Shown here in pieces: positions 1 through 64,000 of a stretch of 64,000 bases of DNA (its first letter is position 1; each line of letters starts with the position of its first letter). Source of the stretch: Treponemataceae bacterium (GTDB taxonomy: Bacteria > Spirochaetota > Spirochaetia > Treponematales > Rectinemataceae); assembly GCA_963678065.2 (NCBI GenBank), contig CAXXVZ010000005.1, positions 864,001 to 928,000 on the forward strand. Reading direction: 5' to 3'. Made by a program: the position numbers.

Positions 1-3000
1 TTGCGACGATGGCGCGAGCATCGGCGAACGCCATTGTGCCTGAGCGGAATGAGCGACAGCGAGTGGAGCGAATGGCCGAAGAGGGAGCCTGCGACCGATG
101 AGCGTGAACAGCGCTGTTAGTTGCAGTCGTGACCTTCAAGCGCGCTTGGATGGGGAGACTTGTCTCCTCATCCAATACTCTATCTTGCGCGCGTTCTTCT
201 CTTCCTCTTTTCTTAACCCTTATTTTTTTTCACGATTGCAACTAACGTTCTGCCTGTTTGCGACGATGGCGTGAGCATCGGCGAACGCCATTGTGCCTGA
301 GCGGAATGAGCAAAGCGAGTGTAGCGAATGGCCGAAGAGGGAGCCTGCGACCGATGAGCGTGAACAGCGCTGTTAGTTGCAGTCGTGACCTTCGAGCGCG
401 CTTGGATGAGGAGACTTGTCTCCCCATCCAATACTCTATCTTGCGCGCGTTCTTCTCTTCCTCTTTTCTTACCCTTATTTTTTTCTTTCACGATTGCAAC
501 TAACGTTCTGCCTGTTTGCGACGATGGCGCGAGCATCGGCGAGCGCCATTGTGCCTGAGCGGAATGAGCGCATGCGAGTGCAGCGAATAGCCGAAGAGGG
601 AGCCTGCGACCGATGAGCGTGAACAGCGCTGTTAGTTGCAGTCGTGACCTTCGAGCGCGCTTGGATGGGGAGACTTGTCTCCTCATCCAATACTATATCT
701 TGCGCGCGTTCTTCTCTTCCTCTTCTCTTACCCTTATTTTTCTCTTTCACGATTGCAACTAACGTTTCCGGCCTACGACGTTTGCGACCGCACAGGCGGG
801 CGCAAATGTGCCTGAGCGGAATGAGCGAATGCGAGTGAAGCGATGGCCGAAGAAGGAGCCGAAGGCGACTGATGAGCGTGGGCCGTGTTGTTATGCGCAG
901 TTATTTTTGAATATGTCATTAATAATATCAATCACTTCATTACTAAAACTATTTTGCTGATCTTCATTTATTATTATTTCCTTTTTTATTTTTACATAAA
1001 TCCAATCACTATCTTCGCAATACTCAAATCTCGAAGTATCAATATTCCAATTTTCATTTAGTGTATCTTTTTTCAGAGCGACACTAAGTATATATTCCCA
1101 ATATTGTGCGCCTTTATCTACCAAATTTAAATTCAAACCAATAAATATATCATCATTTTTTTTATACTTAATATATCGTCCTTTCGTTGTATCATCATAA
1201 AAATCATTAGCCCATGTTGATAACTCGAAATCCGATCCGATACCATCAATAATCATTTTCCCCGACTTCTCGACCAATTGAATAATCTTACACATAACCT
1301 TTAAAGATTCATGAATATCTTTTGGATTATAAAGCATAGCAACCTCATAAGGTGAAAGGATGGTATCAATTGATGATTTTATTATTAATTCTGATAACAG
1401 GTTTAGTGCTTCAGCTATAATATAAGAATCTTTTTGTAGATCATAACTGAACAAATATCTAATTAGGTCGTCCCAAATTACAATTTTAATAAACGAATAT
1501 TTTAATTTCGCATTTTCAATCTTATCTAGATGTTTATAGTTTTTAGGCAAAATAAATATTTGTCCTTTATAAGGCTTTTTACTATTTATTACCATTTCTG
1601 GATAACTATATATTTGATTGTCCTGCAATGGAGTGTCGATTCGAATTTTGTTTTCAATTAAGTAATAAGCTTTGCTATTAGTAATTACCAAATCAGGAAT
1701 GCCAGTATTATACCTTATCTGAGTAGAACAATGATTTAAATCTATAGAATCAATAGCATTCATATCTATTTTTAAATATGAAAATAATATATCTCTAAAA
1801 TATCTATATTTCAAAAGATTACATAAAATCTCTGTAGATGTATTTTCATCTTCTTTTGTTAGCCCATAAAATATTGATGTAGACCTATTCATATAATATA
1901 TATATATCCTTCAAAAATAATTGCGCATAACGTTCGCCTGCCTACGACGTTGTGGCGAGCATCGGCGAGCCACAATGTGCCTGAGCAGAATGAGCGATAG
2001 CGAGTGCAGCGAAGGCCGAAGAAGGAGCCGATAGGCGACTGATGAGCGTGGGCAGTGCTGTTAGCCGCTTTAGCAAAAGATCCTATCCATATCCCCATTC
2101 TCTGATACTTTTTCTTTTTCTATCTTTCCGTTATTCCCATATACTATATACGCATTTTTACTTTTATCACTTCGGATTATCTGATAGCGATTATTCTCAA
2201 GTACCAATGCACAATTGTCTTCAATCCCAAGAACTTTTTTGTCATGTGTCTTCATAAACTCTATAAACTTTCCTTCCTGCTCTCGCGCGTTAAGATGAGG
2301 ACTATGACATCCACGCATTAGTCCAAGTCCATTTATATATGAATAATTCCATCCATCAGTATTTCCAAAACTTTCTGTATCACTAACTCCATACTCAAAC
2401 CAACATACTGATCCTGCACTTAATCCACTTAAAATAGTCCCTTTTTGAGATGCTTTTACTAGTAAATCTTGTATCCCATATTTTCTCCAAATATCCAACA
2501 TCATTTTCGTATCACCACCACCAACATATATAATATCTGCCATTTTTATTTTTGTTTCTATTTCACAATCATCAATATTTCTGTCCTTTAAACATAACAC
2601 ATCACAGTTACAGCCAAGTTTCTTACCATATACTTCTTGCACAGTCTGAATATATCCTTCCGGTTCTCCACTGGCTGTAGGAATAAAAAGATGGTGAGGA
2701 GATTTCTTTGAACACTTTTCGACAATATAACTATCGATCTCGAATGTTTCACCTGTGCGGATTTCTCCTCCACCAATGGCAATGATTATACTCATGTGGA
2801 ACTATTCCTCTCCATCTTTTGCTATTGCGGCTAACGTTCTGCCTGTTTACGACGATGGCGTGAGCATCGGCGAGCGCCATTGTGCCTGAGCGGAATGAGC
2901 GCATGCGAGTGCAGCGATGGCCGAAGAGGGAGCCTGCGACCGATGAGCGTGAACAGCGCTGTTAGTTGCAGTCGTGACCTTCGAGCGCGCTTGGATGGGG

Positions 3001-63000: not shown

Positions 63001-64000
63001 GGCCTGCGACGTTTTGGTGAGCATCGGCGAACCAAAATGTGCCTGAATGGAACGAGCGCATGCGAGTGGAATGAAGGCCGAAGAAGGAGCCAAAGGCGAC
63101 TGATGAGCGTGGGCCGCGGTGTTAGACGACGTTTTTCAGGAAATCATTTATAAATATGTCTTTCCAGAATTTAGTATAGTCATATTTTTCTTTCTCGATT
63201 GTTATATCGCTTTTTTTTATAAATTCATACAAAAATGCAGAACATATTTCAAATAGTACCCAAAATTGGATATTAACCATTTTTTTTCTCTCATTAATAT
63301 CTGTCATTTGAGAATTTTGTAACAAATTCAAATACTCACAATGAGCATAACTTGATAAATATGAATACAGGAATGAGCTTTGATAAGGAGTAACATTCAT
63401 TATTTTCATTATGTTTTTCCATCCAGGTCTCCATTTTCCTCTATTTTTGTATTCTGCTTTTTGATCTTTAGGTAATATTTTAAAACAATTATTATTGTAT
63501 ACTTTTTTTTCAATTTCGATAATTGCATTTTTTTCTTGTTTTAGTTTTTCAATTCCATCGGCATCTAATGGAATAAAGTGTTGTCTTGTAAGCATCCCCT
63601 CTCGTTCCCAGCTATAATATCTAAATTCCAATTCTTCATTATTTTTGGAATCAATATAGATATAGTAAAATAATAATACTGTTTCTAAAGTTGCTCTATT
63701 TATTGTAAGTATTGCTGAATAATCTTGTACCTTAACTTGTATTTTCCCATCATCAAGATTGGATCCATTTCGCAATGTACACATCGTAATAAAATGACAA
63801 TATATCTTGATAAAAAATTCATAGCCATAGGCTGTAATCCTATCAGGTATTGTTTTTTTATTTTGAATAGCCTTATCCACTTTATCAAATATTTGCATAA
63901 ACTGTACAATTTCATTATCAATATCAATTTTATTAGGATCCATAATCTCTCCTGAAAAATGTCGTCTAACGTTCGCCTGCCTACGACGTTTTGTCCCGCA

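Follow-up and report, generated by a model that had tools for sequence, protein, structure and literature searches.

The closest described relatives of the locus analysed here are the sedentary chromosomal integrons, especially the co-oriented type of Treponema. The portion of the published account available to us describes these as a tyrosine recombinase, an attI site and a long co-oriented cassette array, with crossover at G^TT, hairpin sites running from AAC to GTT, and AT-rich cassettes that carry either a single gene (GNAT, toxin-antitoxin or defence-like) or no gene at all (Wu et al. 2013, PMC3607928). Both the definition and the detection of integrons rest on an insertion in their integrase, IntI, and the acquisition of this insertion is held, in the accessible parts of two further papers, to have enabled the recombination of cassettes as single strands (PMC7790495; PMC4889954). 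The near-absence of integrons from Firmicutes and Bacteroidetes is set out as a puzzle in the excerpt at hand of PMC9024848. An enzyme without this insertion (the I2 helix) has also been described at work on a folded single strand, namely XerCD on the CTXphi strand, whose stem has no extrahelical bases. Insofar as the available text of that work covers it, this shows that an enzyme lacking I2 can use a bulge-less hairpin (PMC4792948). A near relative class is the "Integron-like" subgroup of tyrosine recombinases (Smyshlyaev et al. 2021, PMC8138268); the part of that paper open to us calls the insertion essential for integron function and gives no cassette arrays for insertion-less members.

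We analysed a window of 64,000 nucleotides (C5:864001-928000) from a 5.27-Mb genome in 5 contigs (99.9% complete, 6.7% contamination), together with the remainder of the array to which it belongs. Rectinemataceae and Treponemataceae supply the closest named homologues, which makes a spirochaete the probable source. The C5 locus shares with the Treponema integrons the recombinase, the attI-like site, the long co-oriented array, the G^TT crossover, the AAC...GTT hairpin sites and the character of the cassettes. It differs from them in that its recombinase, g04185, is without the IntI insertion (TIGR02249 score of 197, below the cut-off of 265) and in the build of its sites, in which the R arms measure 12 bp, a G·T is conserved and an unopposed bulged G is lacking. 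The canonical L box is found in the sites of a second array of the same genome, on C3, and in one T. denticola row of the Treponema account, as far as that account was available (PMC3607928). Unlike CTXphi, which according to the available text borrows the XerCD and dif of its host (PMC4792948), the C5 locus encodes a putative dedicated enzyme, its own attI and the cassette array together. From sequence comparison, we consider it likely that C5 carries an integron-like array joined at G^TT, for which g04185 would be the dedicated integrase, acting on the folded bottom strand of the sites. That the array is run by g04185 is what we infer from position and co-occurrence. Because two features by which integrons are defined, the I2 insertion and the canonical attC, are lacking here, we do not class the system as a member. 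What does appear genuinely new is an integron-like design whose candidate dedicated enzyme is without I2 and whose sites are not canonical attC; the literature searched, which did not extend to subscription journals or to survey supplements (Cury 2016 Fig. S1, Smyshlyaev 2021 appendix), held no description of such a system.

The array in its entirety covers C5:754680-931571 (~177 kb) on the minus strand and fills the window from end to end (window positions 1-64000), with 169 delimited cassettes of median length 871 bp and a GC content of ~0.37-0.47 (~0.37-0.41 for the window) as compared with ~0.56-0.64 in the flanks. A 140-bp repeat profile run against the genome gave 180 matches, 179 on C5 and one half-site on C2, bearing out the count of 179 attC-type matches, all on C5 bar one weak hit, from which this work set out. 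All 179 lie on the minus strand between 754680 and 931444, with 75 inside the window. They comprise 169 whole sites and 10 partial ones, and correspond to ~175 distinct sites since the partials represent four sites split in two by IS elements, one cut by an IS and one divergent site. Gene-less cassettes of less than 300 bp make up 54 of the 169 (one example, of ~257 bp, lies at window positions 60280-60536, minus strand); the possibility that they encode a peptide was rejected, as reading frames are not conserved among copies. In the remaining 115, the longest ORF follows the array direction in 93 and the opposite direction in 16 (several of these being IS), with none in 6.

Pfam domains were matched in 24 of 36 scanned window proteins, among them GNAT, PIN, BrnT, HEPN, TIR, Mrr, Schlafen and transposases, and PADLOC matched 2 of 33. 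Cassette genes on the minus strand include one that matches the candidate defence model PDC-S02 (34990-36024) and one with a TIR domain and a PADLOC TIR-TM match (13756-14817), while a DDE transposase (57295-58488, minus strand) belongs to an IS that has entered a cassette; it is among several IS copies that are present elsewhere in the genome too. Rfam gave no match within the 64-kb window. Near-identical entire cassettes recur at separate places in the array with different neighbours, some at 99.9-100% identity. The GNAT acetyltransferase cassette at 51540-52410 (minus strand), for instance, has related copies at six array places, again with differing neighbours, and three of these copies (window positions 47078-47946, 25665-26533 and 22897-23765) are 99.9-100% identical. 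Duplicates this close point to recent shuffling.

Just past the right end of the window, the array begins at a GTT at C5:931571 (crossover G^TT), and the stop codon of g04185 (C5:931895-933076, minus strand, 393 aa) lies 324 bp ahead of it, in agreement with the earlier note, which had placed the array start at an attI-like GTT immediately downstream of a co-oriented g04185. The putative attI consists of two inverted arms of ~10-11 bp flanking a 6-7-bp spacer; its core, an inverted arm 6-7 bp ahead of G^TTA, appears 3' of the gene in 10 of 15 loci from the same family. An attI-like GTT also falls within the first 400 nt at 32 of 60 GTDB loci versus 116 of 1268 control windows. A sigma-70 scan around attI and g04185 for a cassette promoter (Pc) returned no sites. 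Both g04185 and attI were found at ~99% identity in sequencing runs of two further studies, and none of the runs listed as containing the region was an RNA run. The platform was covered in X6 and X7, where the cassettes closest to attI were without cover; we do not count this as evidence, as such contigs show presence and not absence. No excised circle was seen, the joints listed for sequencing runs falling at repeats and showing no excision.

The g04185 protein comprises a HARP-like N-terminal domain, PF13495 and PF00589 (134 bits), and has all of the catalytic residues (R248, K276, H337, R340, H363 and Y372), each conserved in at least 90% of 107 homologues. Neither g04185 nor any of the 27 homologues aligned with it has the IntI insertion, near patch III, which only the canonical IntI encoded on C3 contains. 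The spacing between the K and H motifs is accordingly 67 aa in g04185 versus 106 in IntI, and 64-70 aa in every listed GTDB homologue in which both motifs were matched (four rows gave no value). On TIGR02249, g04185 scores 197.3 bits, in two pieces, and the C3 IntI 450. The claim that g04185 keeps the catalytic motifs without the IntI insertion is thus confirmed. Its predicted structure (pLDDT 83.6) likewise shows no extra helix and is matched best by XerA and VchIntIA.

Archaeal XerA serves chromosome dimer resolution at dif. Its family NF040815 (PDB 4a8e, 5hxy) gives g04185 both its best NCBIfam score, 213.8 against a cut-off of 220 that all four tested homologues pass, and top structure matches; g04185 is under the cut-offs of TIGR02224, TIGR02225 and NF040815 alike. 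Unlike XerA, g04185 carries an extra HARP-like domain and stands at the head of a cassette array; its genome encodes XerC/D as well. The HARP-like domain, at residues 8-75, is a weak match to PF07443 (E 1.5e-5, 24.8 bits against a cut-off of 25). As modelled, these residues find the SMARCAL1 HARP domain as their top Foldseek match (E 0.0095) and give modest VIA-align scores with the UvsW N-terminal domain (Z 6.9), XPB (Z 6.7) and HARP (Z 4.4). The group formed by HARP, the UvsW N-terminal domain and the XPB domain binds branched or mismatched DNA. We dropped the replacement of I2 by this domain as a defining feature, as the canonical C3 IntI carries a HARP-like domain too; some array-heading homologues (L044) are without one.

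For recombination of a folded strand, the folding asymmetry of the sites and their lack of spacer homology are indirect evidence. As read from sequence, cassettes are bounded by R''(AAC)-L''...L'-R'(GTT) palindromes, as they are in integrons. In an example of ~140 bp (window positions 62016-62154, minus strand), R'' TAAC, an asymmetric unpaired spacer, a 9-bp L stem with the bottom-strand G·T, and R' G^TTA can be made out, and the commonest subtype is exemplified at 56587-56724 (minus strand). Among 169 cassettes, the cassette start matches its own R'' at positions 5, 6, 7 and 9 in 96, 94, 96 and 94%, respectively; the physically adjacent R'' does so in 65, 35, 62 and 60%, as compared with 75, 40, 62 and 68% for the best of 500 shuffles. 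It is thus the distal R'' of the same cassette with which each start pairs, and this sets the crossover at G^TT and the orientation of the cassettes as the minus strand. A further 12 genomes contributed 61 site pairs with the same own-R'' pattern; in these, position 11 is unpaired (2%) and position 12 covaries (89%). Pairing of the R arms extends to 12 bp, with position 11, a G·T pair on the bottom strand, in Watson-Crick form in only 1-2%. L stems covary between site subtypes and are ungapped in 165 of 169 sites, with a G·T about where canonical attC has its bulged G, and the spacer on the R' side is 1-3 nt longer than that on the R'' side.

The designation of these sites as "attC-type" holds in that AAC...GTT palindromes bound the cassettes, and fails in that they are not canonical attC (12-bp arms, G·T, no single unopposed bulged G), a difference that rests on register and arm length since an unbulged stem with a wobble is a possible drawing of canonical attC too. 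All 148 unique sites fold better as bottom than as top strand (148 of 148; -33.0 vs -25.9 kcal/mol), these being related copies with a purine-rich bottom strand (0.58) and hence not independent.

On the reading that we prefer, the first bases of a cassette in the excised circle would pair with its own distal R'', and g04185 would bind the resulting 11-12-bp arms and cut, at AAC, both the folded bottom strand of the site and the bottom strand of attI. The folded cassette-end site would be recombined with double-stranded attI through exchange of a single strand, with the junction being resolved by replication. The choice of strand would stem from the asymmetric central loop and from G·T as opposed to C·A pairing, rather than from recognition of a bulged G through the I2 helix. 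More speculatively, the HARP-like domain may help to bind the hairpin.

The same enzyme could instead be imagined to carry out ordinary double-stranded recombination with two exchanges at the L'-spacer-R' half of the site, in which case the hairpin would be a by-product or serve another purpose. The lack of the I2 insertion in g04185, the presence of archaeal XerA among its best family and fold matches, and the resemblance of the inverted attI arms and their spacer to an Xer core would all suit such a reaction. However, partner spacers differ in sequence and length: the 7-nt spacer ahead of the crossover is identical on both sides of the cassette in only 35 of 169 cases, identical cassettes lie behind different spacers, and registers across sites range from 5 to 7 nt. 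Overlap homology is thus apparently not needed, which argues against a two-exchange reaction that requires it. Moreover, R'' covaries with the start of its own cassette, and L'' with L', over ~130 bp, for which only pairing offers an explanation. We consequently judge the double-stranded alternative to be unlikely.

Evidence from relatives bears on the link between the recombinase and the array. With a threshold of E ≤ 1e-60, 15 of the 68 genomes of the family have an orthologue, so that the recurrence reported previously stands with 15 in place of the 17 genomes then counted. Sites of the same type follow the gene in six of these loci (5 in G062, 9 in G068, one each in G064 and G012, one weak in G035 and one marginal in G016), and 7 further contigs end within 0.8 kb, much as had been noted before. 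No downstream sites were found in G014, the gene of which has an in-frame stop, or in G060, which has a distant homologue. In a GTDB scan covering 4 of 64 parts, the best 80 of 586 homologue loci were searched with a strict detector tuned on the C5 sites, which found 62 co-oriented sites in 272 kb downstream (23 loci), none reversed and none in 566 kb upstream; without its AC filter, it found 95 downstream and co-oriented as compared with 15, 33 and 27 in three controls. An independent pairing detector gave 85 versus 0. Contigs end less than 3 kb downstream at 52 of the 80 loci versus 18 upstream, as expected at repeats. At 28 loci the contig continues for 3 kb or more downstream; strict sites were found at 16 of them and paired cassettes at another 3, and ~8 have none. 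Given that 12 of the 28 are without a strict site (the second detector picked up 3 of these), an array does not follow every homologue. Members of Spirochaetota, Bacillota, Bacteroidota, Nitrospirota and Thermodesulfobacteriota are among the carriers, mostly as incomplete bins that are not independent of one another.

An IntI above the TIGR02249 cut-off was found in none of 10 array-bearing genomes tested, and two of these are complete: that of Desulfitobacterium sp. Sab5, with 24 sites, and that of Brucepastera RmG11, with 21, in each case spread over 40-45 kb. In the family, IntI occurs in 38 of 68 genomes, namely in 2 of 15 orthologue carriers (G021, G064) versus 36 of 53 non-carriers, and the two enzymes nearly exclude each other; the Fisher p of 2e-4 for this exclusion is overstated, as kin are not independent and bins are incomplete. 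A one-piece TIGR02249 match in G012 was rejected as a divergent IntI, being XerC in a topA-xerC-hslU context.

This genome does possess an intact canonical IntI, on C3, which the earlier note had named as a possible actor in trans while missing that it heads a co-oriented array of its own, with 14 differently built, canonical L-box sites (C3:99415-124707). Searched with the detector for the new site type, the C5 array yields 159 sites, the rest of the 5.27 Mb yields 3 and the 10 kb behind the C3 IntI none; with a canonical-attC pattern, the C3 array yields 11 and the C5 array none. Each site type thus keeps to its own array within one genome, with one nested exception: a canonical cassette, interrupted by a group II intron, lies within a C5-type cassette at C5:773394-776190. 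It sits at a secondary GTT, and hence IntI-type activity reached the DNA of the C5 array once, though not via the array's own sites.

On these grounds, we regard as very unlikely the proposal that g04185 is a bystander and the array a CALIN on which the C3 IntI, or an IntI since lost, acts in trans. The intact IntI, the nested canonical cassette and the two family carriers that also have IntI would be consistent with it, and an earlier survey, in the part available, dismisses insertion-less recombinases near attC (PMC4889954). The accessible text on IntI1 cuts both ways: deletion of cassettes was abolished when both sites were without extrahelical bases, recombination of attI with a bulge-less attC was only 6.2-fold lower, and the central spacer could still set the strand when bulges were absent (PMC2727003). 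Against it stand the segregation of site types, the position of the nested cassette, which lies at a GTT within a cassette and not at one of the array's sites, the association of sites with homologues on one strand and one side (62 vs 0), the arrays in complete genomes without IntI, and the conservation of the attI-like site behind the gene.

For the ancestry of the enzyme, we built a tree of 71 rows, which contains no archaeal XerA and from which the long-branch Xer row L103 was left out, as were the Xer loci L115 and L116, which gave no protein. IntI (100/100) and XerC/D (100/100) each form a clade, and g04185 and its family fall outside and separate from XerC/D. A third group unites the 41 rows without the insertion and branches on the same side of the Xer split as IntI (94/81, the bootstrap being not fully settled), and the insertion-less family is therefore probably a sister clade to IntI, in a tree that does not hold XerA. 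Very unlikely, too, is that g04185 represents a degenerate IntI that lost its insertion and is inactive or in need of a host or partner factor, its array being a relic or driven by another protein, for although a HARP-like domain and co-orientation are common to g04185 and spirochaete IntIs and two family orthologues contain in-frame stops, the catalytic residues are kept across the homologues, the insertion-less rows form their own group outside IntI, and the nearly identical cassette duplicates point to recent shuffling.

The proposal of a second, non-canonical integron class served by g04185 is thus supported by site segregation, by arrays in IntI-less genomes and by near exclusion within the family. 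A broader reading, for which we see the case as evenly balanced, is that this class is widespread (in Spirochaetota, Bacillota, Bacteroidota and Nitrospirota, among others), acts without I2 on sites folded from a single strand, and would be a surviving pre-I2 stage between Xer and IntI, which would explain the near-absence of integrons from Bacillota and Bacteroidota. If true, a sister family that keeps arrays of up to ~175 cassettes without the insertion would reorder the history of integrons, offer a possible answer to the Firmicutes/Bacteroidetes puzzle and open an unannotated pool of mobile genes, part of it defence-like. The present genome contains both systems, each with its own type of site.

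C3 also encodes three recombinases of 326 aa without the insertion, which were considered as array enzymes and rejected, being multicopy and each overlapped and then followed by a long out-of-frame ORF; no new-type sites lie within 10 kb of the two of the three that were tested. We take these recombinases to be parts of an IS91-like element. Regarding the wider distribution of g04185, an ESM Atlas search at 0.90 returned nothing but unnamed clusters, and a phage search yielded one record at E ≤ 1e-40.

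Approximately one-third of all cassettes in the C5 array are gene-less units of ~257 bp (e.g., window positions 60280–60536, plus 53 more) that contain an internal hairpin; these frequently occur in tandem runs and also occupy the first place after attI. Neither a conserved ORF nor a promoter call was found in these units, which could constitute promoter, RNA, or spacer cassettes. Between g04185 (the recombinase gene) and attI, the minus strand carries a weak −35 element and, at a spacing of 16 nt, a perfect −10 hexamer (C5:931829–931856; positions 4829–4856 of locus L140); together they are a possible cassette promoter, below the passing level of the promoter scan. 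At five homologue loci (L020, L022, L025, L037, and L039), palindromic repeats of the arm motif lie downstream of the gene and upstream of attI, possibly representing accessory binding sites or operator sites.

Homologues of g04185 were also encountered in archaeal bins (Methanosarcinales, Undinarchaeales, and Altiarchaeales) and in one Patescibacteria bin (L019, L021, L049, L076, and L077), on contigs too short for arrays to show; an attI-like site is present at L019. Genome G010 encodes three copies, with identical scores, of a 287-aa family member without the HARP-like domain (L044, L118, and L119), with strict sites behind only one of them.

Canonical attC sites distant from the C3 IntI form one small CALIN and single cassettes (C3:2358754–2370574, C3:823322–823430, and C2:660660–660750). 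A 326-aa tyrosine recombinase, present in three copies (C3:853378–854487, 865923–866903, and 2358754–2359870), probably belongs to an IS91-like element; since two of these copies begin directly after a canonical attC-like site, attC targeting by this element is suggested. Within the C5 array, two-gene, IS21-like IS elements (C5:835343–839227, 822808–825395, 796575–799152, 761756–764362, and 787942–790500) split four of the sites in their variable middle and, in one cassette, disrupt the start. A group II intron interrupts the canonical cassette at C5:773394–776190 (L141), and a second locus, C3:118109–120137, belongs to the same observation; known attC-targeting IIC introns have the opposite orientation.
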